A stretch of 64,000 bases of DNA from Schmidtea polychroa (taxonomy: Eukaryota): NCBI GenBank assembly GCA_044892525.1, contig CM097885.1, positions 14,510,001-14,574,000 of the forward strand, given 5' to 3'. Below, piece after piece: positions 1,468-63,530 of the stretch (position 1 is its first letter; every line of letters begins with the position of its first letter). A model generated the notes under the pieces. It was not told the origin of the DNA and ran no database searches. It was given only the letters and a program-made list of their open reading frames with translations. The position numbers and the translations under genes are program-made.

Positions 1468-1777
1468 TTTCAATAAAAACTTTATGCACCATTTTGAATT
1501 CGGTGTGACACAAAATATTATGTCTGAATAAAATCAACTCTTACATTACTTGTATCCCACTTCTTTGAGTTTTCTATTTTTATAATGTTTTCCTTATCTT
1601 CCAAAAAAATAATAAAATAAAAATTTATATTACGTTATAACGTTATATTTAATATAAAACCTTTTATTGGGAAGCAAGATAAAATCACTAACAATTGATT
1701 AAAAAAGTTGTAATAAAATGTTCTAAACAAAAATAAAATCATAAAATTATTTAATGACAGCTGATAAACATAAATTA

Positions 1778-1997
1778 TTGGAATCTTTATCTGGAATAAC
1801 TTTGACCATTAACTCCTTTTGGCAATCGAAGACATATGGCTCTCGTAACAAACTTTATCATGAGATTCATTAGAATCGCGAATTAGTTTTCTAAGGTAAA
1901 TTTATTTGGTTGAATAGAAGGTGTTGATGATCAAGCTCATCAACAGAGAGACCACAGCTAGGAAAACGAAGATTTCAGCTTCTCGAATTTTTGGCAT
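1778..1997 (-). pseudogene. HSP90: Hsp90 N-terminal pseudogene fragment (copy 2, inverted)
   Basis: From ATG at 1997: [52 protein letters not shown], then after a frameshift KELMVKVIPDK. Confidence 0.9.
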
Positions 1998-2479
1998 ATT
2001 TTTTTATTGATTTTGGTGAGAGTTAACGTTTGAGATGTCGAATGATGCATGAATTGTTTTATATCATTTTTGAATGAAAAGAATGTTTAAACAGTAATTT
2101 TAATTTAATTAATTTAATAATATATTTTAAGTTTAATTATTAAGTTGATATTATTAAGTCAGAGGCAACTTCAGTTTCAACTAAAAATGCTAAATAGACG
2201 ACATATTTATACATAACCAAAATTAATGCATCTTCTAATGAATCTTCATCTATATTTGCTTCTTTTATCTGTTAACCCGATTTTTCCCAATGCAACCAAT
2301 TGGTCACTCAAAAAACCCAAAAAGTACAACTTCGTGACAAAATGGTAACTTCTCCTATAGGTCAAACCCTTAAAGTTTTCTAATTAATTAACAATTATTA
2401 CTTCTAGAAGCTCCTTAAGTAAAATAAATAATAAAAATCTATGCATTTTAACAAAAATAAATCTGGGACAAAATAGGTA

Positions 2480-3605
2480 TATATCCACATTATCGCTGAA
2501 AAAAGTCTTTCAACCGAAACCTGTGTCGCAGATGCAGCTAGGGGGATTTTTCCTGCTTTCACAATTCTTTTATCTTTCTTATCCCAGAATTCAAAACCAT
2601 TTGTAGAAGATTGCTGAATTTCAAATTTATCAAAACTGTTGTTATCGTAACTCCAAAATACGCTATAATTAACACTATAAAAAATTTATTAGATACGAAA
2701 TTCTTGTACAGCTGTGATCGGAATTTGATCAGTTTATGATATTGACTGATTGTAGTTCTGGTGCTGGGTGATGAATTGCATATGAATCTTTAGTGAACTC
2801 CATCTTTACTTCACTATGCTCCATTTTTGAACGTGCGTTTTTCTATCGTTTTATTTAAACAAAGTTTTTTAAATCTTTTATTTTTTTATATAATAATTTA
2901 GTATAATATAATATAATATTATCTATTTATGTAAATTTCTAAATATACATAAAATAGAGGCACTATAACTATTTATTAGTGAATCTAGAGAATTTCTTTT
3001 TCATTTTTGTTTTCATTTGACTTAGCTAATTAATTTTCATATAATAATTTAATAAATCATCACCTGTCGTTTCAGTTGGCATTGATATTTGCGTTGCTAT
3101 CACCGTTGATCGGATCAAGTCATTATTATTGCTATTTAGATTTTCAAATTCATTGAATACTAAGTTATATGATTTTGCTAAATGCTGCTCACCTAAATCT
3201 TTAGCAGGACCATTTAATAAATTTTGTTAACTCAGATCATCATACATAACAGCCATGATAGGCGCACGATTGGACAATAAACATTTTTCTCTGTTTTCCA
3301 AAGTAGATGCTAAAAATTTACAAAATGTACTTTGAGAGGTAGGCATAGGCTTCACTCATGATCATTTCATTTGATCGAAGACAAATAGCTGTTTCATATG
3401 AATGTTTTAACGCTGCTATCACATTTTCCATTTTGAATTCCACCTTGTTATCACATTTTAGATCGGTTTTCTTATTTCTTTGGTTCTTGTCGATGCAAGA
3501 ACCGTCAGAGTTTTTAATTTGATTACCATAACTGGTGTTTTTTCTCTATTTGTTTTAAAAACGGATACCTTTGTTAGAACGTCTTTAATTGCAAGTTGTA
3601 GCGTA
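2480..3605 (-). mobile_element. Decayed hAT transposase
   Basis: Collinear broken motifs TLQLAIKDVL, RKPI*NVITRWNS, FEFW...PLAASATQVSVERLFS (hAT TRWNS and dimerisation motifs). Confidence 0.75.
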
Positions 3606-4504
3606 TATATCATACATATAATAAGTGTTAAAATGTTGATTTGATAGTAAGCAATTCATTCATCACCGTGCTGTTACTTACGGGGGCCCAATGCGATTGC
3701 ACCTTTTACGCTTGCTATAGTACGGCGCTTAATTCAGTTCATCTCTAACTAAATCTAAATCGTTTCTAAATCATTTTCATATCCTATTTGGGTGATCCCA
3801 ACCAATGCAGAATTTTATAATAAATTACGTCCAATGTATAAATATTTTTTGCTTAAATGTTATATTTTTTAAAGGGTTTTGTAATTTTATCACAAATATA
3901 CGGACTAGTACGCATTAAGGTCATCTATCCCTTAAGGTCAGTAATCAGTAATCCTTTAAGGTCATCTATCCAATTCCTTTGTTCTTCCGTTGAGGTCACA
4001 ATTTTACTTGAAAACCGAACTTTCACTGGTGATTTCTATGTCGATACAAAAGAAATCTATTTAGAAATATTTATTAATAATAAAAATTTACCGAAAAAAT
4101 TTGACATCTGTGAATACTTTTCTAAATTTCGATTTATCTTTTCAAATTTAAAATTTCCAACGATCGTGCGTGCTATGTAAATTGTTATATGTTGTGTTAT
4201 ACTTGCTTTGTGTTTGCGTGCAAAAAAGTACGTGTAAGACGTTTCTGTCTGTCTTTTAAAATGATAAAAGTCTCTTGGAGATTAACTAAACAAGACTCAG
4301 GAATCAACGTAAAGATTTTTAGGCGAACAATACTGTTTTTTTGTGTCGCTATTTATATAAATCTTGTAAATAAATAATTTACAAATAGAACGCATTACAC
4401 AGTGTTGTTTAAATAAATGTGAACACAACTAATAATTTAAAGAAATTATTTATTGATTACAAACACCAAATCAGAGAAAAGTATTACATTTGCATGTTTT
4501 AAAT

Positions 4505-4770
4505 AGCAAATATGTCCTCCTTTTGCTTTTACAACGTTTGCAACACGTCGTTTTTATCCATATGAGATGTAGACTTTCGTTGTCACTTTTTTTTGTCACG
4601 AGATCTCGGTCCTTGTACCAGAAATTGTTTTCATGAGAGAACAACACGTTTCTTCAATCTTCAACAATCCAGCTCACATATTTTTTGGCCCAAATATATC
4701 TTTTTTTCTTCATGGCAGCGGCCAATCTTAGCAAGAGTCTTGATACGCTTTTTGACAGAAATATTCATGT
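4505..4770 (-). mobile_element. Tc1/mariner transposase relic
   Basis: RRVANVVKAKGGHI resembles the Tc1 C-terminal RRLxAVIKAKGGHT motif. The rest is highly decayed. Confidence 0.4.
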
Positions 4771-5194
4771 TCTAAAATAAAAAATAGGCAGTCTGGATAC
4801 AACCTTAGTAAAACAATTGTGATTGAAATTGATTGAACGACTTACCCATCATGATTGAAATTGTTTTTTTTTGTAATTTCTATAACTTCATGTAAAAGTT
4901 TTTTGACGTGAGAAAGCATCTTTACAAATTTGTTTTCTATATTTTTTTCATAGATATCGGAATGTTAGCGTTTTAAATGCTGTTAGGGATTTCCACTATG
5001 ATTTCCAGCAATAGACATTTACTTCTATTGTTCATATATTTTCAATTTTGACTTATCTTTCCATATCTCAGTGTGGTCCAACCTATGTGTCGTGGCGCAT
5101 GATCAAGTGTATCGCGGAAACTTTATAAAAAATTTATAAAAAAACGTACTTTGCATATCTTATTCAGAAAAATAATTGTTTTTTTCATTAATAA

Positions 5195-5539: not shown

Positions 5540-13971
<8,432 letters not shown>

Positions 13972-17998: not shown

Positions 17999-19235
17999 TC
18001 ATAATTGTGTCTTGAATCTCTAAATTGAAAAATAATTTTTCTAAATAAAAAAAAATTCATTCGACTTACTCTTGGTTTTTTAAACTGATACTCCTTGGGT
18101 TTTCCAGTGAATTTATTCTTCAAATTATTCAACAATCCAACAAACGGGCCGTCCTTAAATGAAAGAAATATTTTTCATCCTTGAAATAATTTAACATACT
18201 ACTAAAGCTTCAATAATTAGCTGGGAATTTGCCTCATTATCTGCACTCTCTGAAGATCTCATTGCTATTTCCAGTGCGTTAAGATTTTCACGATTTTTCA
18301 TGTGTTTTTTTGCACCGTTTTTCACCAACTTTTTAACGATTTCTAAATTTTTTTTTGCAGTTGCCAAATGAAGAGGAGAATCGTGATTTTCGTTTAGTTC
18401 ATTAACGTTGCTCTTAGACTTTATTAATAACTTTGCTGCGCCCGTCTTATCCTGCCTAATGGCCGCGTGCAGAGCCGTGTCTCCGTACTGAAATAACACG
18501 TAAAGATTTTAAAGTGATTTTTGTCTATTACTTTGTTTTTTGCATTAACATCTGGCTTGTATGATAAAATTAATTTTAAAACGTTTACATTGCCCGTTTT
18601 GGCAGCCATATGCAAAGGTGAATTGAAATCCTGAAAAAGAGAAATTTTATTTGATTTTTTGAAAATTATTTTTTTATTACGCGATTTTTTGAATGTAAAT
18701 TCATTTTCTCATCGTCTTTTTCAAGGAGATATTTTATGAATTCAGTCGCCTCCTGTTCAACTGCCAAATGCAATAGATTCTTGCCATCTTGGTTCTTCAT
18801 GTTCACAACAGTCAAATTGCAAAGAAGTTTAAACGAATCTAAATTTTTGATTTTCAAAGCAAGACCCGCTGGCGTGAGATTATCCTATTGGTAAATGGGA
18901 TGTTAATGTCGCTCTTAATTGTCTAAGCAAGTCTTACTTCGTTCATTGATTCTGTCATTTTTCTGAAGGTTTTAACAAGAAATTTAATGACTTCAATTTT
19001 GTTTTTTCGAGTTGCATAATGAAGTGGAGTGTCGTAATACTTTATAAGAAATATCAAAATGGTAACTAAAACAAATAAATTCAACCTCATGCAAACAATC
19101 AATTGATATTCCGTTGAAATCAACCAGTGTTTTAGATCCTTCATTATATCTGACATCCTTGAGTAACTTCTCCAATTCAATAATATTTTCTCCATCAATT
19201 AATTCAAAAAGCTTTATTTTCGCTAAATTTTCCAT
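17999..19235 (-). CDS. Ankyrin-repeat protein, 7 exons, ~315 aa
   Basis: Exons 19235-19086, 19039-18938, 18884-18681, 18630-18532, 18487-18200, 18153-18070 and 18019-17999, joined by six phase-0 GT-AG introns of 44-53 nt. Repeats include TPLHYA, NLLHLA, SPLHMA, TALHAA and SPLHLA. Confidence 0.9.
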
Positions 19236-19873: not shown

Positions 19874-21020
19874 CAGTGCCGGTTCTAGGAGTTTTCTGTG
19901 TGTAGGCAAGATGCGAATTTGCCGCTGCAAAAATAAAAAATGTAATTTTTAAATTGGAGAAAAATAGAAAAACACTGAATATCTGAACTTAATAAATATA
20001 TTTGTATTTTAATACGAAAAATTAAACACAATTCAGTTTATAAAAAATAAAAAATAACAAAACATATAATAATGAAAAGTGAATTTTTCTCGCTTTTAAT
20101 TCTCCAAAACCCTTAACCAAATCTTCCATGTCTAATTGATCAGCAATTTCTTTTTCTATGGAAGTTGTGGCTAGACCAACTAAACCAGTGTTGTCCAAAC
20201 TGTGTGCCGCGGCGGGTGGCCAGGTGTGCCGTGAAATTTTTTTAAAAAAAGTCAAAAAAACCCTGTTTTCCAAACAACTTAATAAAAGGAAATTGAATTG
20301 TGGATATTTTAACAGTTATTTCAAATTTAAATGTTAATCAGTCAATTAAGTGCGAAATTTATTTATTTACATATTTATATTTCATATTTATATTTCTTAC
20401 TAGAAATATTGCACATAAATCTCATTAACTATGTTTTATGAATTTTTCATTCACTAATTTTTCTAAATTTAAAATTTTTTACATTAAATTTATTTCAAGT
20501 AAATAAGTTTTTCATTTCTTATTAAAAGATTAGTAAAAGTGCAATAAAAAATTGCAAATAAAGCAAAAAAAATTTAGGTGTGTCGCGAAAATTTTTAATT
20601 CAGCCAAGTGTGCCGTGGCTCAAAAAAGTTTGGACAACACTGAACTAAATGATCTTGACACATTTGTGATCTCAGACAAGGTTTTATTATTTTCAGCTTT
20701 GATAAACTTCTTTCAGCACTAGCAACTGTGACTGGTAACGTTAGCAGTATTTGAAGTGCTATCAACAGGTTGGGGACTACTTCAACAATTTTAGACGTGT
20801 AAATATATTTTAACACACTTTTTAGATCGCTTTTCGAAGTATCAAGTCGTTTTCCTATAGCTTTAATTTCATCCCAAAGTTCGACCCCACTGATGTCTGA
20901 TTGGCCATTGGATGTAAGCACTAACTGCAAGTTCTTACATTGTTTTAATAATTCATCATCCATAAATTTCTTACTACCGATATTGTAAAGAAACCCAAAT
21001 AACTCCCAAATAAAACCCAA
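19874..21020 (-). mobile_element. hAT (Tip100/Zaphod-type) 3' end with transposase C-terminus, split by a MITE
   Basis: LLTLPVTVASAERSLSKLKIIK..LRSQMCQD continues past the MITE as GLATTSIEKEIADQLD..F..LKARK. Terminus CAGTGCCGG at 19874. Confidence 0.85.
20186..20642. mobile_element. hAT-type MITE, 457 bp
   Basis: TIR CAGTGTTGTCCAAACT...AGTTTGGACAACACTG, with 8-bp TSD AACTAAAC/AACTAAAT. A related single end is at ~5069. Confidence 0.92.
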
Positions 21021-21784
21021 ATTGTCCCAGAGAATTTCTAATAATTACTAAAATAATTTAAATGCATACAAATGCATTAGGATCTGGGATTTTAGTACTG
21101 CACAGTCATAGGCTAGAAAACCATATGCTCGTCAGGTCATTAGCAGTTCTTATTGTAGAACTCACTTATTGCAGAAAGTCACCCGCTAAATCTTAGTATC
21201 AACGTCGCTTGAGACGGGCTTTTAGTAATCGATAAAAATAATTATGTGTGGTTACTAGTGGTACTGAAGACAGCGAAGGTGTTGAGCAGATAAGCTGCTA
21301 GAAGTGAAAGATTCTCCCCATAAGTAACCCATCATACGTGCAACTGCTTGCGCATATAAATTTATTATTTTTGTTTTACTTTTTATTTAATTTTTGTCAT
21401 ATGATTATTTTAGATTTTGATTGAAGTTTTTTGTTAAATATAAATAACTTCAGACGGTTCATGTGTTCGCTGACCTCGTCTCGACCTATTATTCATAATT
21501 ACTTTAGATTAATTTTTACTAATTTTTAGAAAGTTCTTAATAACGAACATCGAGTGTCTCAAACAGTTTCAATGACGGATATTACCTCCAAGGATTTCCA
21601 TAATTAATGTATTCATAACTAATTTCAAAATTTTGGGAAATTTCCCCAGAAACAATATACTCAACACGTTTTAATTCCAGAATACGTATAATTTGAACCT
21701 CTATATTAACTTTGCCTAAAAATTGATTAATTTAAGAAACAACAAAATTCAATACTAATAATGCATATTGAAACACTTTATGTA

Positions 21785-23640: not shown

Positions 23641-26545
23641 CGCTTTTAGTTTTACTAGTCGCCCTTATGTTTATAAGAAATAAAAAACCTTATAGTGGTA
23701 TGGTTTCTGAAAGATTTTCTTTTGGAAAGTTTGCGAAGAATTTTCGTAATGTCGAAAGTGGAAGGATATTTGGACTACTATTTGGTATAGGTGTGAATGT
23801 TGTTACTTGGATATTTGTTGATATATTCCACACAGTAATAATAGAAAATAGTCTTTGTCTCCTTGATTTGTTCTTGCGATTGTAAATTATTCAATTCAAT
23901 ACAGTAAAAATACAAAATAGTTCTAATTTCTTTGATTTGTTCTTGTGTTTATAAATTATCCAATTCTATTCAGTAAAAATATAAAGTAGTTCAAATTTCT
24001 TTTGAATTTTTTTATTGATTTTTTTTCCAATTTTTAATTTTTTCATTTTTAATATAGCGATAATTTACTATAGTACTATTAGTTTTTTTTAAAGTAATTT
24101 ATTCCTTGGCGTTAAGGACACCATAACGGGAGTAAAAACAAAACCTAATTGAGGTTCTGTTTTGACTCGTAATTAAAATAAAAATATATCATTCTACTAC
24201 ATTTACCATTACTTTTCACTAATTAATTTTCTTTGCGTTTTGTGTTAAATATTTTAATTCTGTATCTACATTAATTTTACATAACATCAACATTTATGAT
24301 TGAGAAGTCTCTGGAAATTTTTAAACAAAACTAAAAGCAACTTTAAATGAAATAAATGGTGTAAAATTAATACTTCTTTGATGTTTTTGTGAGTCTGAAA
24401 AGAACAAATATAATAAGTAATAAAATAAGTGTAACAGGTATTAGGTATTAGGATCGATCTAGGTGGGGTTGATTCTTGAAACTAACTTAAATTTTATCTG
24501 ACTCCAAATATGAAACTTTCTGGCGAGTAGCTTTAATAAATATTTGTGTATTCGTAAATATAGTTCAAATGAATAAGTCTCAAGAGTGTTATACAAATAA
24601 ATATATTAAGCAATATACCATATTTTACAAAGTATGTGTAACTAAAAATGCCTCTTGGTATAAGATAGAAATCGATTGTTCAAACCGTCCTCAGATGGCT
24701 AAGATGCCATACACTAGGACTAAGTGGTTACCCAAGCGTCGATCGATTTACCCGAATTTTGCTCAATCCCTTAGAATCAGGTTTTTCTAACGTTTCTTAA
24801 TTTTAATCCCTTTTGAATTTTATCTCAAAACAGGTAACTCAACAGAAGAATCACTGACACCTGTTGACTGGTCTAAATATATAAATTGAAACTCAAAATA
24901 ATGATAAATTAACGTTAAGACGAGTACCTTTTGAATTAAAAAAAATATCTTGCAAAGTTGAGAAGCTATCTTTTATTATTCTCTCTAATCAATTATTATT
25001 TATTATCGGTCTAAATTCTGCTTTTTTTTGTTCTTTTTTAGCACAAACTTTTCTCAATACTATATTTAAAATCTATAAGCTTTTTTATATTTTCTGTTAT
25101 CCAAGAATTTAAAAGTTCATCACAAATTTTAGTAATTATAAAATTTTAAAAATATTCCATTTATTACTTAGCCCATAATGGCCATCCCAACCCCAACATA
25201 AAGACAAGTTATCATTTCTTTTAAAGTAAGAATTTGCAATTGAGTTTAAAGTAGTAAAAAAAAGTTGCGATTACAACCAATCAACTCTAAACCAATTAAT
25301 AACGCACACAGGGCATTGTTTTCGCTTTTCATTATTCCATATTTATCAGTCCACCAATCTTGAAACGATCTGTTAGAGTTGGACTCTGTTCTATTTTTCT
25401 TATTTTCTGACATTCTAAAGTTGAAATATGTATATTATTTATTTATAATTAAAATCGTTAATGAATTACCCTTTTAAATCAATTATATTATTTGTCCTCA
25501 AAAAATATAAATATGTATTTTTTCTATAAGCAAAAAATAATATAGTAAAATAAGATAACACAACTTTCTATCGCACTTACAAAGTATCAACTATACTGAA
25601 TTAGTGAATATGAAATGAATTCTGCAAATATCCATATTCATATGTATATATTTGAAAATCCAAAGCATACTATGTTCAAATAAAAACAATAACCGTCTAA
25701 AAATTGATAACACATTTTTTATATTTAAAACCACGTGTACATATTTGTACATACACAAATAATATAATTACATATCTTATAACGTTGAAATAAAATCGCC
25801 AGAAATCTGTGAAAACTCTTAATTTTGCTTTTTAAATATCATATTTTTGCATTGAATTTGAATTTAGTTCACAATTTTTTTCAAAATCGATAAACGATTT
25901 TGTGTTAGTTAGAGTATGAAAAACGAAAGATATTATACGTGCCAACGAAAATTTATCTGCATGCCACTTTGAGCACGCGTGCCACAGGTTCGCCATCCCT
26001 GTTATAAACTATATAACTATGGATTAAAAATCTAAATTCCTAAATTGTAGATTATAAAAGGGTGAATCATAACTACAAAGTCTAAAATGTAAGATCGTAA
26101 AATGTTGAATATAAAATTATAACCAAAAAACTATACAACCATAAAGTAAAAATCTAAATTTCTAAATGGTAGACTATAACTGTATAAATCATAACCATCA
26201 AGCCTAAAATATAACATCGTAAAATATTGAATATCAAATTATAAACCATATAACCATAAATTAAGAATCCAAATTCCTAAATGGTAGACTATGAAACTAT
26301 AAATCTGAAAATATAAAATTAGGAAGTAGAAAATATAAAATTGTAAGATGTTAAATAAAAATTTATAAATTATAAAGTGTATAACGAGAACTTGTAAAGT
26401 ATGAATTTATAAACTGTAAGATATAAAATTGGAAATTGTAGAACGAAAACCTGTAAAGTGCAAAATGTAACAATCTAACTCATATAATATGAATCTCTAA
26501 ATTGTGAAAGACAAAATACGAATGGTAAAATATAAAGTTATATTA

Positions 26546-26714
<169 letters not shown>

Positions 26715-27820
26715 TACTATTAGCATTATTATTGTTCTTATTACTATTCTTATTATTCTCATTGTTATTATTATCATTATTATTATTATTATTATTATTA
26801 CTATTATTATTATTACCACTATGATCACTTGCTATCCTTGTTACCACCATTTTTACTGTTATGATCATAATTAGTATTACTTACTAAGAAAGCAAAGATC
26901 AGTTATATATTTTTTGCTGATTCCCATATCTAGATTTGGAGTCAATTCTGTTGCCCAATAAAAACGTTCCTAACCTAAAAAATCTATATTTAGCAACACC
27001 CCCCCCAGAGAAATATCAAGGAAAAATTCAAGACGGGGATACGACCATCAAGAGTTTCCAGGAGACGGTGAGAATGACTCCGGCGAACCATGCAATCGAA
27101 TGAATAAGCCATAATTCGCAGAGATTTACTTACGTACAGAATACAAATATTCCCGGAAAATTTCCAAATTCGGCGAGTGACAAATTGCGGGTCCAAATCA
27201 AATATTGGGCATGAAATGACATTCCCTGGGAAGGATTATGGGAAGACTGCTCCAAGCTAACCTATTCCCTCTTACTCGATCGAGGTTCATAATAATATCA
27301 CCTAAAAATTAAGGAATTAGGAAAATTAGATAAATTACTTGCATGTAGAGCAAACCACTCATAACGAGCACAACCGAAGGAAAGGTAAGCAGACGAAGAG
27401 CTTAGTTCGTTGCTAGTACCTGTCGCCCCAGCGAGCCCGAATTTAGTGGCCTAAAAATGACGATCTAAAAAACCACACATTTTATTAAAATATAAATTAA
27501 AATTCATAAATAGTAATTAAAATTACCACTTAGTGGTAAACAAAATTTTTGAATGTAAAAGATTAATTTAAACAACGAATTTTGACGAAAATTTTTTTTG
27601 TTATCTAGTTGATAAAGTGTGAGATCTTATTCTACTGTTCCTAGGATTATAGATGCTGGTTTTAAAATAAATGATTTTTTCTTTAACTTTGAATTTTTAA
27701 AAAAGGGGAAAAGGGATCAACAAAATCCCGTGTTTAACCTCGTAATACAATCTATATAAAGTGGCCTGATTGTTACTTTGTAGAAATGTCCTACTCAATA
27801 CTATATTTAAAATCTATAAG

Positions 27821-28125
27821 CGTACCCGGTACATTTGGTACCACATCCATCGGTGGAGTCAGGGGCGGGACCTGAATTGCGCAGATCGAGTGATCCGGCA
27901 AGGCCCCGAAGCAGATGCCCGGCGTGGGTGAAGACGGAGCCGGAGAACAACCGGTGGCAGGAAGCCCGCGATCAAGCGGCCTGGGACGTAGAAGCCGCTC
28001 AGATCCAGCTTAAGAAGATAGACTTGCAGATCAGGGCAGAAAGGGAGGGGGTGCCCCTAGAAGAGCTAGAGGAAGCCGACGTACCCCCGAGAAAGAGAGG
28101 GAGGCCCCGCAAGTATCAATTGTGA
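27821..28125 (+). CDS. Small AT-hook protein, start unresolved
   Basis: Open frame ending ...EELEEADVPPRKRGRPRKYQL* (AT-hook core RGRP), with VKTE SUMO consensus. TATATAAA at 27753 and an ATG at 27786 are present, but that ATG is out of frame. Confidence 0.6.
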
Positions 28126-28404
28126 TTAAGAGCCGACATGTGACTTACTTCAATAACTTCTTATCTAGTGGGTGTGGCTTAATTAATGATCAATTTTGAC
28201 TAATGTTATTGTTCAATAATAATCTCTTATTCATTGGGTGTGTATTAATTAATAATTACAATTGACTGGGGTTTATTATCAAATGAAGTGTTTTCCTTTT
28301 AAATTGAGTTGTTGTAACAAGTATAACAATGTCCTAGCGACACATTATTAGTATTGATTAATCAGTAAACTCTTTTAGCAGGTGTAAAATTAATAACACC
28401 CTTT

Positions 28405-28884
28405 ATGTTTTCAGTGTATAAGTTAATGGAAAACCTGCGGAAGGATCGGGAGCTTGCACAGCAACAAGCAGACGAACTCCGGACCCGAGTAGATAAACTA
28501 AAAGGGAAATGTCGGGAGTTTGAGGGGACCTGGTTTAGCCCTGAGGCGATGAAAAGGAAAACAACCCAGATTCTCCAGCTGCAGACACAAGCCGCCCAGG
28601 ATCAAATGGAGATTCGCGCCCTAAAATTGCAGGTGCGGGCGCTCGAAACCGAACGGAATGAACGGTTCGTGCAGGAATCCGCAGCAAGGCAAATCCGGCC
28701 GCTGACCATCGAGCTGGCAGCGATATATCCTCCGGCCGCTGAAAGCAAACCTAAACGAAAACGGCTAGGACGAAACATCCGTGAAAAATTAAAGAAGGCC
28801 AGGCTGGCCGAGTACGAAAGGCAAGTGGACTCATCGCAAATGTCTACGACGGGACTAATTGGTCCCACTATTAAGCCGAGTTGA
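28405..28884 (+). CDS. Unknown coiled-coil/basic protein, EGTWFSP family paralog A
   Basis: 159-aa GC-rich ORF (or 152 aa from ATG 28426 after acceptor-like TTTTCAG). Collinear similarity to the 30010 ORF, with NLS-like KPKRKRL. Confidence 0.75.
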   Translation: MFSVYKLMENLRKDRELAQQQADELRTRVDKLKGKCREFEGTWFSPEAMKRKTTQILQLQTQAAQDQMEIRALKLQVRALETERNERFVQESAARQIRPLTIELAAIYPPAAESKPKRKRLGRNIREKLKKARLAEYERQVDSSQMSTTGLIGPTIKPS

Positions 28885-30009
28885 ACTGTTATTCCGTTTT
28901 TTTGTAGTGTGTTTTGTATATTTGTAGTATTAAAATAATATTTTTATTGTTATTACAATAATACATATTTTGTAGCGTTAAAATAATGTCTGGTATATTT
29001 ATGATTGTCGGAGAAACGAGAGGTTGTGCGTAAGGTTGGGAAAACAATCTTGATAAGGGACCTGAGGAAATCGGACACAAACCTTCTAACGGTAGTCCGT
29101 GAACCCATGGAGTACTCGACGATTATAGTGCCTCGATGCGCTCACTTTTCGCGGGTACTCAACCCCTTGGTACAGTACCAACGTTGATTACTCAACGGGT
29201 ACCAAGGGGAAACTAATGTTGTATTTTGGGTTACGCTGGTAACAGCACTTAATCATTCGACCACCTGTAACCCACCATAGGGAATAGATTATTAGCTTCA
29301 GTTCATTCGCAATTCTCCGAATCAGACACACACTACATAAAGCTTTTACTCGTGAGAACTCTAGTAGAGATTCCAATCGACAATGTCATGAGAGTACACG
29401 CATTGACACACTATAGAGAAATTCCGTATTTTCATGCAGTGACATGATATTTTCAAACGGCATTCGCAATACAAACAGATAACTATATTCCTATACAATC
29501 ACTCACTAGTTTGCGTCGTTATGACGACGATTACGGCGGAGATTTAAAATTAAAAATTGGAAATAATAAATGGAGAGGTGAAAGTTAGTCGTTATGAACT
29601 CTTCGTCTAATTGATCGACTTTAGCGTAGAGCCAGGAACCTAAACGGGCGAGACATAACACAAAAAATAATCGAGTGACATAATAAACAAGATTAATGAT
29701 AATAAAATAATATTGTAAAACGGTAATAATATACTTAATCATAATCGACCAACCCCGAGATATAGACGAATAAATCATTGTGAATATTCCCATTTTCTTT
29801 TAAATAAATTACAGGGATTTGTGCGAATTATCGTGGATGTTTTGAGGCATGAATGAGTTTAGGGACGAACATTGGGATGTATGTGTGAGATATTTTTCTT
29901 TTAATCTCATTTTATATATAATGTGGGCGGTAAAACTCGCGTCGTGAAAGTACGATTGTCGATCAAACTAAATGTTAAAAATGCAAATGTGAATATCTTT
30001 AATCTTTAG

Positions 30010-30771
30010 ATGACTACCCCAACCAATACTGGGAAAATTCTTCGTCCTTGTTTTTCCTGCGCTGATAAAAATGCTGACATCGCGCAGCTTCATCTCTACA
30101 TCGGGGCACTGAAGAAGAGAATTGACCTTTATGAAGGCACGTGGTTCTCCCCGCCACAAATGAAAGAGGAAAAGAGTAAGATATTACGTCTGGAGCACTG
30201 CCGTGACAGTCTCCTAGAAGAGAGTAGGTGCCAGAGGCTAACTATAAAAGCCCAATCAGAAGCACTCCATAAAGTATACTCCGAGTCCGAAATAGCAAAG
30301 CGAGTTCGGGAATATCCAGTACAAGACGGGACCAATGTGTTCCCGATCCATCACCAATCATCAAAGCCATCAACCACTGGTTGTAAGGGGCACGGCCCGA
30401 ATCTGCCACCAATTCCCGCTCCAATTTTCTCGGGTTATAGGCCTATGGCAGGAGGCTCATCGGACCCTATCTTGGCTCCGATTCTCGTCTCTCAACCTAT
30501 CACCCAGTCTCCATTAGAAGCTACCCAGCCACATCGGAAACGCAAGAGGCTGACGCGCTCTGAGAAGAATCAGAAGCGCAGGAACGCCATGGCGGCGCTA
30601 GAAGCTTCTCTATCCGTGGCCCAGTCCACCATTAAGGATATCTCAGCCTCCCACGTAATTCCGGCCAAGGAGATATTCAGGGTAGTTCCGGCCGATGGTA
30701 TTAAGTACCTTGCGGATCGCCGGTTGCCAGTAGACATAGACGAGGTATTCGCCGATGGAGATGTTTTCTGA
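30010..30771 (+). CDS. Unknown coiled-coil/basic protein, EGTWFSP family paralog B
   Basis: 253-aa ORF. TATA-like 29913-29921 and a plausible 60-nt 5'UTR intron (29950-30009, GTACGA..TTTAG) ending at the ATG. Contains CxxC, a Pro-rich linker and HRKRKRL. Confidence 0.78.
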   Translation: MTTPTNTGKILRPCFSCADKNADIAQLHLYIGALKKRIDLYEGTWFSPPQMKEEKSKILRLEHCRDSLLEESRCQRLTIKAQSEALHKVYSESEIAKRVREYPVQDGTNVFPIHHQSSKPSTTGCKGHGPNLPPIPAPIFSGYRPMAGGSSDPILAPILVSQPITQSPLEATQPHRKRKRLTRSEKNQKRRNAMAALEASLSVAQSTIKDISASHVIPAKEIFRVVPADGIKYLADRRLPVDIDEVFADGDVF

Positions 30772-32606
30772 ATTTCCAACGCGACGAACGTGTCCATCTC
30801 TTATTTAGAGGAGACCTAGGAACTAACATCCCTGTATATAACAATTTATTGGTGTTATTTAGTTGATATTTTATTAAACGGTGGTGTACGATGTTCGGTT
30901 CCGATAATCGTGAATGTAATATAAACAATACAAATTTTTATTTATTATTTGTTGATTTAATGGTGAGAGCGATGAGTGAAATGCATGGATGAATTGATAA
31001 ACTGGATATATGTCATTGAATGAAGGCCGTCCCCTTGGACCAGGGTCGGGCCAAATGCAAGTGTAGGAACGGGTAAGTCCTTCTAAGGCACCATAGAACC
31101 TGAACTGAGGAGGGGTTAGGAGTAGTCTTAAGGCAGAGGCTCACCTGCTAACTTCTTCCGACCCGTGTGGGCAGCACGAACGTAGAACATCATTACGGGC
31201 TCATACGCGGGAATATTTGCATGATCATGTGGTGTGTGTAAGGGAAGTGTCTGAGCGGAACGATGAGGATTGGTGTGTGCAATAGTGATGTTTATTGTTT
31301 TCCCCTACATGCGCCCAACAATATATATAATAATAATACAGAAAGAAGAAAATTTACATACTCATCAACGAGTCACTACACACTATGTTCTCGGACTACG
31401 TCAATAGATATTCAGTTACATACCTGGCTGATGTTGCGCATATACTTTGTATAAACGTCGTGCAACGTAATAATTTTGACTAAAGATAATTAACGTATGA
31501 TTTAAATATAATTTTTTTGTTTAAAATCAACAATAATAATGTTGTTACATTTTGTCCTAGTACTTGGACTTGATACCAGAAGCATTAGTAGAATAATTTT
31601 ATAAATCATTACATATAATCGCTTGTCAATTTCAATAGAAGAGTCAACAAATCTAAACGTTATTTAAAAGATTTTCCATAGAATTTACACAAAATCGATA
31701 ACAAAAAATTAAGTTTTATTAACACAAACTTACAAAATCATAAGTGCATAAGAATTCGATTATATTATTTGTCACTTGATTGATATCGATATATCATTAA
31801 ATATCTCTCTCTCACTATATATATATCTATGTATAATTTATTACAGGATTTGTTACAACGAATTTCTATCTCTATATCATGCTGGCATTATAAATGTACA
31901 ATTACTATTAATGTTATTATTATTATTATTATTATTCGATATCGTTTATACAATTTCTTGCTGTCCACACACACGCACACACACAGATTCATTTGGGCAT
32001 TCAATCACATATCTATATTTTTCCATGATACCATAAAAATAAATTATATATTAAATTTACAAAAAAATCTCAACAATTTTTGATTACAAAAAAATCAAAT
32101 GGAAAAAAACAATCTGCATAATTAGAATGAAAATATTTGGTGGTATGACAATGAACATTGACTGTAATCTCGCTGAAAATTGAAACATCGCCATCATCAT
32201 TTTAATAATAATTAATAATTCCTATTACAATTATTAAATTTGTCAACAAACTAATATACGGTTGCTGATTAACGATAGTCAATGAACAAATAATGTCATT
32301 GGTAACAATAACAATAATATCAATATTAATAAATATATCAATAATAATAATTATATCAATAATAATAATTATATCAATAATAATAATTATATCAATAATA
32401 ATAATTATATCAATAATAATAATTATATCAATAATAATAAATATATCAATATCAATAATAACAATTTGTCAATAAAAAGCAAGTTGATCCGTTGTAGTAT
32501 TTATATGACAATGAAAACTGCTTCCAGTTTGCGAATCAGATAAAAGTAAATATAAACAAATTATTGAATTTGTATTCGGAAAAAGTGGTTTACGATCAAA
32601 AATACT

Positions 32607-32891: not shown

Positions 32892-59506
<26,615 letters not shown>

Positions 59507-60030
59507 CAAAACTTCAAAATCTAACCTGAAATAATTATTGACATATATTTCTATTCTTTTAGGTAATTAAGAAAATATGAACTACTTAATTAGAAAAAAA
59601 TACTTCTTTTACTTAAAATTACTTTACACAAATAATAATTATTAAAAGAAAAATAATAAGCACTATATATTTGCTTTTTCTATTAAAAATAATTTTCAAA
59701 TTAGTAAATATAATAATTTGAAAAAAAATGTGATCTTAAACAAACAACTTAATAAAAATCCTCAATGATAATTTTGAGGTGTTTTTAGCTGAGAGTTGAA
59801 AATTTCAAAAAATTATTAAGATAATTTTATATGATAAATAATTGATTATTTAAAATAACTTTGAAAAATTTAAAATTTTTAAATTAAACAAGTTTTTTAA
59901 CCTGATCATTTTTAAATAAATATATTTTAAATATCGAAATTTTAATAAATGGTTTTTTGAAATATTTTATTCAACGCTGAAAATTTGTTTAGAAATTATA
60001 CAATTTTTCATTAAATAAATACTTGGAATT

Positions 60031-63000
60031 ATGTCGTTAACTTTTGAACAGGATTTAAAATATAATTTAGAAGATGTTTTAGCAGCTTCTAATATGGCGA
60101 CCACGTCTATGGATTTTTTCATAAAGAAGCTATTCCCAAATGCTTATCATATAGGAGATTATGTTGAAACATTCATTAAAGAATGCGATAAATATTTTAA
60201 AGTGGTACAAATGCCTACTTCAAGACAAGAAGTGATGATCGAATTACTGATCGATAAAGAGATCAGAGATATATATACAGGAGTTGACCAAAATATCAAA
60301 TGTTATAAGGAAAGATTGCGGAAGGCATTCGTCCAGAAAACAAGTTTGGCAGAGGATTTACAATCTGCTATATCTTATAGACAGACGACTGAGGAGCCCG
60401 ATAAATATTTTACTATCATAGACGAGTTAGTCGATAAAATATTGGGGCATGAGTTAACCAAGGAAAGTCTAACAGAATGTCTGCTAGTACACTGTGCAGC
60501 CGAGCAGACTTTAAAACGAGAATTGTGTCAAAATGACTCTAACGGAACAACAGAAGTGAAAAAAAAATCAAGAAGTTACACGAATCTTATATAGTTGCAG
60601 AAGAGATCTTTGCAGTGAGAGAAAGGAGGCCAGAACAGAATATAACAAGAAGTTACAGAGATGCGGTAACAAATCAAGCAAGAAATATTGTATCAGCAAG
60701 ATATAATAGCGAGCCGATAGATTATCGAGAAGAAATACCGAACAGAACTAAGAACGAATGTTGGACATGTCACAAGGTAGGACATTTGAGTAGCGATTAC
60801 ATAACAAAGAATGCAGTTACATGTTTTACATGTGGAAGACAAGGACATTTAAGAAGTCAGTGTCAACAGATGCAGAGAAAGGTAGTCGAATGTTATGCGT
60901 GTTGTAACCCGTGACACGTGAGAAGAAATCGTCAAAAAATAAAGTGTACGAGGTGTAGCTTTAGAGGTCATAAAGAGGCAGATTGTTACACAAATTTGGA
61001 GAGAATGAGATATCGGAGAATCAATGAGAATTTTGGAAGACAAGAAGAGCGATACGAAGCAGGGCATGGTTATCAAGGAACTAGAAAGGATACCAGACAA
61101 GCATACAAGAGATAAGTAGCATTCATAAACGAACCAAGTGATAAAAGAATAGAAGATAAATACAGAGAATACCCAAATATCAACACCCAGATAGAAGAGG
61201 AGATAGTCGGGCAGTGTGTTAAACAGCGATGCTGACTCCCAAATTATTAATTATTACAATAAAAGTAAAATATCATGTATTATAGAAAAAGATGTGAAAG
61301 ATACGGAGGTAACGGAAGAAGAAAATAATGTAATAAGAAAAGTAAACAGATTCCTAAAAAGAATTTTGCAGAAATAAAAAAAGACAAAATAGGAATTCTC
61401 ACATTAGACGAGTGGAAAAATGATATTATTAGTGCAAGACCGACCAAGTGTAACTATTAGAATACAAGACCAGAATATGGAATGCTTGCTCGATACAAGA
61501 GCTACAGTAAATGTCATGAGTTGGAGCAAATTTGAGAAACTTAAAGATGTAGAACTAACAATAACGACTGATACATTGAGATGTTCAAATAATAGTGTTT
61601 TAGAAACGAAAGGTAAAGCAATATTAAAAATAGGAATAAATGGTAGCAAAAACATGTAAAGTTTACGATGGTAAGATATATGATTCCAGAGGTAATTGGT
61701 GGTAGAAAGTTGCAAAAGCAATTTGGTATACAACTAAAGTTACCAGTAGAAGAGGTCTAGAAAATGAAGCAAGAGCACATATGCAGTATCGAAGCCAAAA
61801 ATAATAACTGAGATGGAACGATTTCAAAGAGCAAAGAATACTTTAAAGATAAATATCCCAATACTTCTAAACACTATAAAAAAAGAATCAAAATGTTTTT
61901 ATGGCTGATAAATGAGACATTGGCTGCACAAGGCTGTTGAAGCATAAAATAGAAACTATTTTAAAACCGATAAATATTAAACCTTCTAGACAACCAGTCA
62001 ACTTGGAAGGTAAAATAGTTGAAGCGATAAAAAACTTATGGGAAAATGATATTATCAAAAAGTGTAATTCGCCATGGAACACTCCATTAATATGCGCCTG
62101 AAAGAAAGAAAAGCAAGATTTCAGGCAATTATACCTGGTAACAGAGAGACAGGCGTTCCCTATGCTGAATATAGCAGTAATGTTAGATAAATTGGGTGGA
62201 GCAAAGTATTTCAGCTCGAGAGATCTTGAAAATGCATATTATCAAGTAGAACTAGAAAACGAATCCAAGTTGAAAACGGCGTTTTCAACCAAATCAGGTC
62301 AATACTGTTTTAACAGAATGCCTTTTGGAATAGCAGCGGCACCAGGTACGTTTCAGGAACTGATTGGAAAAGTATTAATGGGTACGAGATATGCAGCAGT
62401 GTACCTAGACGATATTTTGATATTTACAGAAACGATCAATCATAACTACGAAGTTTTAAATGAAGTGCTGTATAAAATTGGAAATGCGGGTCTTAGGATA
62501 AACCCTGAAAAGTGCCATATCCTTAAAGAAAAAGTAAAATATTTAGGTCGCATAATTAACAAGGATGGAATACAGACGAACCCGTCAAAGCTAGACGCTA
62601 TTAAATCATTTGAAAAGCCAAAATGTGTTAAGAATCTGAGAAGCTTCCAAGGAATATGCAATTACTACAGAAGATTTATAAATGAACACGCAAAAAATAT
62701 CAAGAGTTTTAGAAAAGATATGCGGGTTAAGCAACAAATAATTAATTTGGACTGACAAATGCAACATCGCATTCGAAAATATTTAATGTCCTCACCTATT
62801 CTAGGGTATCCAGATTTCGAAAGAGAATTCATTTTAGATACAGATGCGAGTTTTGACACGATTGGAGCAGTATTATCACAGAAAGACGACAACGGGTGCG
62901 AAAAGGTTACAGCATACGGTTCTCATGCAACGAAAAATCATGAAAGGGGATATTGCATAACAAGGAAAGAGTTGCTGGCAATCTATTATTTTTATCAACA

Positions 63001-63530
63001 CTTCAATCATTATTTATATGGAAAACGGTTCGCTTTGAGAACGGACCATAAAGGTATCAAATTTTTGTTATCTACAAAGATACCAATAACAACGCAATAT
63101 CAGACATGGATTAACTACCTCAGTAGTCCGGATCATGCAAATGCAGATATGTTGTCTAGGAGTACATGTGGAACATGCATACAATGTTTATTGGCACACG
63201 AAGACGCGAAAGTGGAAAGAATTGAAACCCGAAGAATAAACACGATGGAAAAAGCTGAAGATTATAAATAGCAAAAAGATAATACAGAAATAGAACAAAT
63301 AAAAAAGGAAAGGACAATGAAAGAACGAAAGTTGTGACAGCATAGATGAAGGAAGAGACAATAAAACTGACAGCACAGGATTCAAGTTGGAAATTTATAC
63401 TGGTTGACAACACGGGGAAAACTATTGAGGGTAAGATATGGATACCTAGATACAAAAGACAAGAAATGATAAGGAGTGTGCATATTTTGCTATCACACGC
63501 AGGAGCAGAACATTTAGTTAAATTTTTCTT
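60031..63530 (+). mobile_element. Decayed Ty3/gypsy element related to the 6.4-kb one, truncated early in integrase
   Basis: PBS TGGCGACCACG at 60095-60105, gag with several zinc knuckles, LLDTRATVNV protease, YLDD RT, DTDAS RNase H and HILLSHAG integrase start. Many stops and frameshifts. Confidence 0.93.

Follow-up and report, generated by a model that had tools for sequence, protein, structure and literature searches.

Two nested, 5'-truncated long terminal repeats of Burro-type giant gypsy retroelements in Schmidtea polychroa, and the genes encoded within them

The window analyzed is a 64,000-nt stretch of Schmidtea polychroa contig CM097885.1. A block at 26949-31320 has 41.8% GC, versus 25.5% and 27.4% in its 4-kb flanks, and the three forward-strand open reading frames (ORFs) described there in the original prediction are present (27820-28125, 28369-28884, and 30010-30771). 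As also predicted, a Pfam profile search identified no transposase, reverse transcriptase (RT), or capsid among the three, and ATTAAA occurs 3' of both ORF2 (at 28929) and ORF3 (at 30873). Rfam (25900-31400) and ARAGORN (whole window) returned no matches. Our analysis largely shows that in this block two long terminal repeats (LTRs), each lacking its 5' part and belonging to different families (A and B) of Burro-type giant gypsy retroelements, meet at a junction that occurs only once (Table 1).

Table 1. Coordinates of features identified in and beside the block (window numbering)
Feature	Position	Strand	Description
DNA-element piece	25301-26001	.	Right-hand 700 bp of a multi-copy element of greater length; inverted-repeat-like terminus
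Piece A	26001-29277	+	3'-terminal 3.28 kb of a family A LTR that is ~4.8 kb when complete; end ...ACCCACCA
122-bp tandem array	26002-26305		Inside piece A
(ATT)n	26541-26815		Inside piece A
LTR A intron	27385-27533	+	149 nt, GT-AG
ORF1	27786-28125	+	Small family A LTR gene; 121 aa in intact copies
ORF2 exon	28415-28884	+	Coiled coil, EGTWFSP, helix, basic motif
Candidate R/U5 of LTR A	29000-29277	+	Non-coding; most conserved 3' terminal segment
Piece B	29278-31320	+	3'-terminal 2.04 kb of a family B LTR that is 3.9-4.2 kb when complete; end ...GCCCAACA
TAGG	29278-29281	+	Target duplication (4 bp), probably the right-hand copy from insertion of LTR A into LTR B
ORF3	30010-30771	+	253 aa, intact

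The block was previously considered a single unit bounded by TGTTG and CAACA. On the right, CAACA (31320) does mark the end of an LTR. The left-hand TGTTG (26949) is internal: homology to other copies continues across it and the (ATT)n microsatellite, as far as 26001-26004 for four of the seven closest copies and 26173-26306 for the remaining three. This internal position rules out TGTTG...CAACA as element ends; within 25901-31400, TGTTG occurs five times and CAACA four times. None of 63 other genome matches crosses the whole block. They break at query positions 2329-2332 (window 29277-29280) or cover one side alone, so that both sides are multi-copy and split at 29277/29278, and the sequence of the A/B junction occurs once in the genome. 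One 4.4-kb uncharacterized element or viral cargo island would account for the GC contrast, the three ORFs, and the genuine right end, but the internal left "end," the absence of any other spanning match, the unique junction, and the lack of mutual DNA similarity between the family A and B LTRs at E 1e-3 make it extremely improbable.

Piece A aligns at 77-86% identity with an intact LTR of 4,793 bp, over its positions 1719-4793, and the closest copies of piece A are 91-95% identical. The 3' end of LTR A is conserved at 93-97% identity per 50-nt bin from 29050 on, and 28990-29277 has a folding z of -2.84. Piece B is 88-94% identical to two solo LTRs (L068 and L069), with a 116-nt deletion near 29424 in the comparison with L069, and its 30000-31320 segment is 96% identical to one paired LTR. 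The B copy closest at the junction reads ...ACATAATAGGGAATAG, approximately 1.8-2.0 kb into its own LTR. Both families make 4-bp target site duplications (TSDs), and TAGG is probably the right-hand duplication left by a family A LTR inserted into a family B LTR. On its left side, piece A is truncated by a DNA element, for which genome matches start at 25301 and stop at about 26001, with a terminal motif at 25988-26001; two other copies align with each other over ~2.2 kb. This element may be hAT-like.

The nest may have arisen in three steps. First, a family A element would have inserted into an LTR of family B. LTR A would next have received a DNA transposon, and the left parts of all three would finally have been lost by deletion. 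The order of events is an inference, because a search of the window, of 60 kb upstream, and of 30 kb downstream yielded neither the 5' halves nor the left TSD copies. The block has no TSD because of truncation. An intact or autonomous element, with both ends, a TSD, and linked gag-pol, is not present at the locus, and tiles of the internal region gave only distant matches (63-68%), all outside the window.

LTR pairs, TSDs, and linked gag-pol were found in relatives of both pieces elsewhere in the genome. We identified three family A LTR pairs (~4.8 kb, 99.4-99.96% identity) and two family B pairs (99.3-100% identity), each with a 4-bp TSD, and the primer-site-like sequence TGGGGGCTCAGCC lies 3' of the 5' LTR in all five. 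Three of four solo LTRs have an exact 4-bp TSD and the fourth has one mismatch. These relatives thus display TG...CA ends, 4-bp TSDs, the primer site, and solo copies, of which the window pieces keep the 3' CA alone. The family A element is 35.1 kb long, with 4.8-kb LTRs and a 25.5-kb internal region; the family B elements are 33.0 and 44.3 kb, with LTRs of 3.9-4.2 kb. In family A, an open frame of 3,111 + 1,691 codons continues in frame across two tiles, and the order of Pfam domains is CCHC, MATH, fusion glycoprotein, protease (PR), RT, RNase H (RH), integrase (IN), and ankyrin, followed by TRAF-MATH and BIR-RING ORFs. A family B copy encodes gag, fusion, PR, RT, RH, and ankyrin, split over several pieces (the integrase stretch fell outside the scan). 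Whereas MATH/TRAF, BIR, RING, and ankyrin cargo all occur in the A element, TRAF-MATH and ankyrin were identified in the B element, with no BIR among seven family B frames scanned.

This organization resembles that of Burro/GYPSM1, giant planarian gypsy LTR retroelements described in the text of PMC6431247 as exceeding 30 kb, with an internal region of up to ~25 kb. According to that text, Burro1 has a single 4,873-aa ORF with env between gag and PR, followed by PR-RT-RH-IN, and Burro cargo comprises MATH/TRAF, BIR, RING, and ankyrin plus BCL2-, dUTPase-, and SUMO-like motifs. The likeness extends to size (relatives of both window pieces exceed 30 kb), to the ~4,800-codon frame of the A element with env between gag and protease, and to its MATH, ankyrin, TRAF, and BIR-RING domains. 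No Pfam match at E 0.01 was obtained for the BCL2-, dUTPase-, or SUMO-like motifs, some of which were detected with HHpred in PMC6431247. The full family A element has the published Burro layout, and the family name is given by layout. The intact A element is only 77-86% identical to piece A, which counts against the assignment. Two differences are that the window holds two truncated LTRs alone and that genes inside the LTR are unmentioned in the text of PMC6431247. The earlier suggestion of a giant LTR of a Burro-like gypsy element thus stands, and that of a cargo module of an uncharacterized element with its own ends does not.

Genomic copies indicate that the LTR transcripts are processed. 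The family A intron is precisely absent from one genomic copy, which is present twice (L009/L010, an inverted duplication rather than an LTR pair, scored as one event), and its donor, AAG/GTAAGC, is conserved in all 19 aligned copies (20 tried). In family B, the solo LTR L097 is missing a 2,090-nt GT-AG intron, so that an upstream LTR segment is joined to the ORF3 ATG; the donor of this intron is kept in all four assessable B LTRs. Because GT-AG introns have been lost precisely and independently from these two copies, genomic DNA alone shows that LTR RNA is spliced and that the splice sites work. Four sets of contigs, uncertain in kind, were uninformative on splicing, start, and strand, and a joint in them at 28112-28409 was set aside for want of GT-AG ends. 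Of the splice-like signals first proposed, the acceptors at the starts of ORF2 and ORF3 are conserved. An in-frame ORF1-ORF2 fusion via the GT at 28113 was rejected: the phases are incompatible, and this GT falls short of the 90% conservation threshold. Neither of the proposed TATA boxes is conserved among aligned copies: the candidate at 27752 reads TATATAAA in 5 of 13, and that at 29914 is unchanged in none of 25.

The ORFs have the properties of selected genes with nuclear-protein features, as had been proposed. The ORF2 exon starts at an acceptor (AG at 28413-28414) kept in 27 of 29 copies. Its ATG in the window copy is at 28426; the youngest A copies have no ATG at this position, and an upstream coding exon was not found. 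ORF3 is immediately preceded by YAG in 28 of 29 loci (TAG in the window copy). For copies selected by DNA similarity, dN/dS is 0.14 for both ORF2 (18 copies) and ORF3 (13 copies), versus 1.2-2.1 in the other two sense frames and 0.53-1.26 in five non-coding stretches; the copies are related, so these values are non-independent. By-eye counts found no internal stop in ~135 of 150 ORF3 matches and 124 of 150 ORF2 matches, in a ranking by protein score that favors intact copies.

The protein encoded by ORF1, which is seen so far in family A only, is helical in one stretch and has an AT-hook (28087-28113) at its C terminus. The AT-hook-like motif of the original prediction was confirmed, at a score under the Pfam cut-off (16.3 vs. 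17.4 bits); the frame as read was not, because in the window copy it is broken near 27918 when set against other copies and the first third of 27820-28125 is therefore not in the selected frame. An acceptor YAG lies 5 nt upstream of the ORF1 ATG in 18 of 20 copies. For DNA-selected copies, dN/dS is 0.23 over the 3' portion, and an intact query copy gives 0.17; the values cited above for other frames and non-coding stretches are the comparison here too. All of the best 150 matches to the intact protein are free of internal stops, yet they are 97-100% identical, and a word-based protein search yielded no significant match among 21 candidates. The protein would act as an AT-hook DNA binder on the AT-rich LTR.

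ORF2 and ORF3 are homologous (E 2e-9). From sequence comparison, they are shown to be members of one family, and the LTR's own coding genes under purifying selection. The homology holds across families A and B despite LTR DNA that cannot be aligned, and the protein family occurs in at least four lineages in the genome as well as in outside database proteins. ORF3 encodes, in order, a CxxC, a helical hairpin with EGTWFSP at the turn, a Ser/Pro linker, a basic helix, and an acidic-hydrophobic tail, with helices at residues 15-42, 49-101, and 183-214 of the predicted model. The C-terminal motif (DIDEVF, DLDDLL, or DLEELL) is kept in families B and C despite a diverged linker, and family A ORF2 is without it. 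We rejected the CxxC zinc hook as a defining feature, as neither family A nor the outside homologues have it.

Of 17 representative outside matches, 16 align over the same hairpin as ORF2 and ORF3; the other, a TPR protein (P0007), was dropped as a helical-repeat match. Most are fused to unrelated host domains. The partner differs each time, and for this reason we interpret the fusions as probable gene-prediction chimeras with repeats. The ORFs match no Pfam family above cut-off. A word-based protein search with ORF3 found none of 367 candidates significant, a PDB sequence search and fold searches (using a model of pLDDT 63) gave no match at E 0.001, and top ESM Atlas scores of 0.83 and 0.90 are to unnamed clusters that serve as leads only. 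Such null results, and outside matches largely joined to host domains, would suit ORFs that are open by chance in the GC-rich LTR DNA or that are exons captured from the host. However, third-position-biased change is limited to the ORFs, dN/dS is frame-specific, the proteins are homologous between families with unalignable DNA, and the outside fusion partners are never the same. We regard this explanation as very improbable, and it is highly probable that the pieces are Burro-type LTRs and the ORFs real genes of those LTRs.

The function of the ORF2/ORF3 protein is less certain. We tentatively favor a nuclear RNA-binding regulator with a basic motif, analogous to Rev or to CERV, the accessory protein of the gypsy-type element Cer1 of C. 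elegans (described in the text of PMC10309623). A short spliced mRNA would give rise to a nuclear protein that oligomerizes via the helical hairpin and binds element RNA via the basic helix. The ~30-kb intron-containing genomic RNA would thereby accumulate and exit the nucleus. As far as the text of PMC10309623 describes CERV, the likeness is that both are small accessory proteins of nuclear type that a gypsy-like element makes from spliced RNA, and that both combine helical segments of the oligomerization type with a basic motif; it is one of motif type rather than of demonstrated homology, and an export role here would be by analogy. An RNA-level role fits ORF2 and ORF3 at least as well as the "chromatin or transcription regulators" first suggested. 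A spliced mRNA is indicated in genomic DNA by the intron-less L097 and the conserved donor. Against a Rev-like role, the 3' end of LTR B folds unremarkably (z 0.27), and the basic motif of proteins from the S. polychroa genome is an Arg/Lys mix (4-6 of each per 17 residues) that also fits a plain nuclear localization signal (NLS); in 4 of 13 outside homologues examined it contains 10-12 Arg per 17 residues. None of 17 aligned family members matches Pfam REV (PF00424), and one of the 17 outside matches does so weakly (E 0.0013, 19.1 bits vs. a cut-off of 22). A pattern resembling a nuclear export signal occurs in ORF3 and some homologues, but not in ORF2 after the basic motif or in family C; patterns of this kind are widespread, and the tally is uncontrolled.

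The main rival, which accepts the same gene identity and which we consider rather unlikely, is a transcriptional transactivator of the LTR. The hairpin would dimerize, the basic helix would be an NLS or a DNA- or nascent-RNA binder, and the acidic tail would activate. It would work like foamy-virus Tas, HTLV Tax, or HIV Tat. Retention of the acidic-hydrophobic end in families B and C while the linker diverges is consistent with this role, as is the separate AT-hook gene adjoining ORF2 in family A; the basic helix resembles an AP-1 Jun fragment weakly and without significance (E 6.3). However, family A ORF2 lacks the tail, and sequence and structure searches revealed no DNA-binding fold. We judge it unlikely that the same proteins counter host silencing or associate structurally with the particle or the integration complex, as in AT-hook tethering to AT-rich DNA. 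Repression of Burro by nuclear PIWI, as the texts of PMC8532177 and PMC10558129 describe it, speaks for such a role, as does the cargo for modulating the host (BIR-RING, TRAF) that the element already has. Against it, the searches revealed no domain of a chromatin modifier or of a known anti-silencing factor.

In plant Ogre elements, LTRs also reach several kilobases and extra ORFs have unknown function; as the text of PMC6431247 presents them, those ORFs lie in the internal region and the env-in-polyprotein layout is lacking. Burro-type LTRs, in contrast, have coding sequence inside the terminal repeat. LTR-resident ORFs occur in retroviruses (MMTV sag, and the overlap of HIV nef) and are copied to both ends. 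Here, a whole coding exon and an intron of up to 2.1 kb lie within a 4-5 kb LTR, the family A LTR holds a second gene, many solo copies persist, and the proteins look nuclear. In the literature searched, a scope short of three key Burro papers, figures, and supplements, we found no description of ORFs inside Burro LTRs.

A broader, somewhat doubtful possibility is that Burro-type LTRs are self-contained cassettes, in which transcription would start within the first ~0.8 kb, the RNA would be spliced to the conserved regulator gene, and the transcript would end in the same LTR. Solo LTRs as well as full elements would then make the protein, which has no detected relatives outside such elements, and a 30-kb gypsy element would possess a Rev-like early-to-late switch, possibly active in planarian stem cells, the setting in which Burro1 reportedly aids regeneration.

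As a locus, this is unremarkable repeat debris. Its interest lies in a protein family that Burro-type LTRs of at least four lineages encode. Repeat masking conceals such ORFs, and gene predictors appear to join them to host genes. Burro1 has been reported to aid planarian regeneration (cited in the text of PMC13465017), and the LTR genes are direct candidates for the expression and export of a ~30-kb RNA with many accessory ORFs.

The GC-rich block at 26949-31320, originally predicted to be a single multi-gene island with LTR-like ends, consists of two LTRs from giant gypsy retroelements of the Burro type, both truncated and one nested in the other. The name Burro is assigned from element layout, not from comparison to a Burro reference sequence. 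The block does stand out in composition (41.8% GC versus 25.5% and 27.4% in the flanks) and holds three open frames on the + strand, none above the Pfam cut-off. It is not one unit. In a genome search with the block (5,113 candidates, 40 scored, 64 matches), no match listed spans it in full except the window itself; the others have edges at window 29277-29280 or are confined to one side. A 23-mer across this junction occurs once in the genome, allowing up to two mismatches. The TGTTG at 26949, proposed as the left end, is internal, because homology continues leftward across an (ATT)n run, to 26001-26004 in four of the seven closest copies and 26173-26306 in three.

The left-hand piece (A) corresponds to positions 1719-4793 of a 4,793-bp LTR at 77-86% identity, and the right-hand piece (B) to the 3'-terminal part of an LTR 3.9-4.2 kb long; DNA similarity between the two LTRs was sought and none was detectable. 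Linked gag-pol, LTR pairs, and target site duplications (TSDs) were found, as the original prediction had proposed to check, in full-length relatives of both pieces. In the three family A pairs examined, the LTRs are 99.4-99.96% identical and separated by ~30 kb; every pair is flanked by a 4-bp TSD and has TGGGGGCTCAGCCGGG shortly 3' of the 5' LTR, which we take to resemble a tRNA-Pro primer site. Two family B pairs (99.3-100% identical) enclose elements of 33.0 and 44.3 kb, both flanked by 4-bp TSDs and carrying this primer-site motif too; the 33-kb element encodes gag, fusion, protease, RT, RNase H, ankyrin, and TRAF-MATH. Solo LTRs were found for both families, with an exact TSD in three of four. 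One family A element spans 35.1 kb; its open frame, 3,111 + 1,691 codons across two tiles, encodes in order CCHC knuckles, MATH, fusion glycoprotein, protease, RT, RNase H, integrase, and ankyrin, and TRAF-MATH and BIR-RING ORFs come next. This matches the Burro/GYPSM1 layout as given in PMC6431247. Thus, the suggestion of a giant gypsy LTR of the Burro kind is borne out by the layout of full relatives, whereas that of a single uncharacterized element with its own ends gives way to two LTRs. The element family is already known, and the locus itself is ordinary. The repertoire of elements suggests a planarian host.

At the junction the 3' end of A is intact, and B lacks the first ~1.8-2.0 kb of its LTR. 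At this place the closest B copy has the same four bases (TAGG) as those just 3' of A, which is what a 4-bp TSD would give. To the left of A, 25301-26001 belongs to a longer repeat, of which it is the right-hand 700 bp. The 5' parts of A and B were looked for in the window and in 60 kb of sequence upstream and 30 kb downstream, and none was found. We infer two nested insertions followed by one deletion, a history that would account for all three truncations, the left TSDs having been lost.

Features of the window, of loci compared elsewhere in the genome (L), and of further genome regions (G000)
Location	Strand	Feature
26001-29277		piece A
29278-31320		piece B
27786-28125	+	ORF1, in A
28415-28884	+	ORF2, in A
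30010-30771	+	ORF3, in B
31075		strong donor-like GGGTAAGT, ~200 nt past the ATTAAA downstream of ORF3
6412-11132		small gypsy element; LTRs of 153 bp, 99% identical; ORFs for gag and pol, the latter broken at a run of (TA)n around 9749-9775
60019-63271	+	second, more broken gypsy-like gag-pol (label from translation)
59141-59566; 18191-18508	-	exon-like frames, with presumed likeness to casein kinase 1 and to ankyrin repeats
20595-21044; 41586-42017; 44534-44851	-	fragments presumably resembling DNA-transposon proteins, one with what we take to be a Cys-rich piggyBac-like tail
55777-56623		tandem array, ~7 copies of a 123-bp unit (length divisible by three), 93% match, raised GC
L053:8584-9669; L054:297-866; L054:1143-2168		further A-element internal accessory ORFs, none reaching the Pfam cut-off; two appear basic and coiled-coil, and in the third a hydrophobic N-terminus is accompanied by another hydrophobic stretch
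L039:934-3261	+	776-codon open frame inside a family B element, on the opposite strand to it; either a nested insertion or an antisense gene
L042-L046		large inverted duplication containing the intron-less A copy together with a gypsy ORF and with repeated ORFs presumably resembling Polinton capsid genes
L037:6069-6827	+	intact 253-aa ORF in a diverged (69% DNA) B-like LTR, in opposite orientation and adjoining the end of a family B element
G000 C1:145063312-145163763		LTR-ORF matches, evenly spaced ~33 kb
G000 C1:39424582-39472440		same, ~16 kb
G000 C1:72646551-72699609		same, ~26 kb
G000 C4:44132295-44192255		same, ~30 kb

The evenly spaced runs, of three or four matches each, suggest tandem elements that share LTRs, or assembly repeats.

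The ORFs noticed in the sequence are real genes of the LTR. Pooled dN/dS was 0.12 for both ORF3 (29 copies) and ORF2 (32 copies) when copies were chosen by protein score; as that choice is biased, a second set was chosen by DNA. This gave 0.14 for ORF2 (18/18), 0.14 for ORF3 (13/13), and 0.23 for the 3' part of ORF1 (18/18), values from mutually related copies that are not independent trials. The controls gave 1.2-2.1 for the other two sense frames, 0.53-1.26 for five non-coding stretches, and, as expected, 0.21-0.33 for the antisense frame whose third codon positions coincide with those of the ORF. Counted by eye, ~135 of the best 150 ORF3 matches (6,934 candidates) and 124 of the best 150 ORF2 matches (6,349 candidates) have no internal stop. 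ORF2 is homologous to ORF3 (29% over 92 aa, E 2e-9). ORF1 is frame-broken near 27918 in the window; intact copies encode 121 aa with a C-terminal AT-hook. We found no account in the literature of genes inside Burro LTRs, and the primary Burro descriptions and supplements may already show these ORFs.

Two splice acceptors are conserved: YAG lies immediately 5' of the ORF3 ATG at 28 of the 29 loci, and 27 of 29 copies retain the acceptor of ORF2. Neither of two candidate TATA boxes is conserved among copies. In family C, a third lineage of the ORF2/ORF3 family in this genome (~249 aa), the copies displayed have YAG 9 nt 5' of the ATG; a fourth, ORF2-like lineage is also present. Apart from a 116-nt loss in the window itself, scanning all retrieved loci for deletion-like junctions revealed three kinds, two of them with exact GT-AG borders. 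Window 27385-27533 is absent from one A copy, which occurs twice. Solo LTR L097, the lone ORF3 locus of the 29 without YAG directly before the ATG, is missing a 2,090-nt stretch that begins with GTAAGT, ~780 nt from the LTR start, and ends with the AG before the ATG; this donor is kept in all four assessable B LTRs. The simple reading is intron loss by reverse transcription of spliced RNA, which shows working splice sites and does not bear on where transcription starts. The youngest A copies have no ATG at the ORF2 start and so need an upstream coding exon, which was not found.

A profile search of 1.84 billion representatives returned 17 matches, 16 aligned over the same hairpin; a TPR protein among the 17 was dropped from the family. 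Most outside matches are joined to unrelated host domains, with a different partner each time. Specifically, P0005-P0020 (database proteins) fuse the LTR ORF to transporter, actin, phosphatase, ion channel, and other host domains, and are probably gene-prediction chimeras. One outside piece has 31-51% identity to its best 150 matches in this genome, a divergence that suggests another species; a second reaches 86%.

The ORF3 structure model (mean pLDDT 63, built on a 17-row alignment) has helices 15-42 and 49-101 connected by a conserved GTWFSP turn; a disordered linker then leads to a basic helix (183-214), after which comes a short acidic helix. Fold and family searches gave no match. An acidic tail in the B and C proteins would suit an LTR transactivator, a role we consider unlikely and one to which its absence in A is contrary. 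Anti-silencing or structural roles seem less probable still. Arg makes up 4-6 of 17 residues of the basic motif in this genome's proteins and 10-12 in four of 13 outside homologues, and one outside homologue matches Pfam REV weakly, below the cut-off. Several internal accessory ORFs start just after YAG (in the A element, four of six within 5 nt or 32 nt, a count without a control set), which makes it probable that the element relies on many spliced RNAs; it would still have to export a 30-kb unspliced one. For the gypsy-type element Cer1 of C. elegans, RNA is exported by the accessory protein CERV, according to PMC10309623. By analogy, the LTR ORF protein may quite possibly, if tentatively, have a Rev-like RNA role, a likeness of action that makes no claim of family membership.
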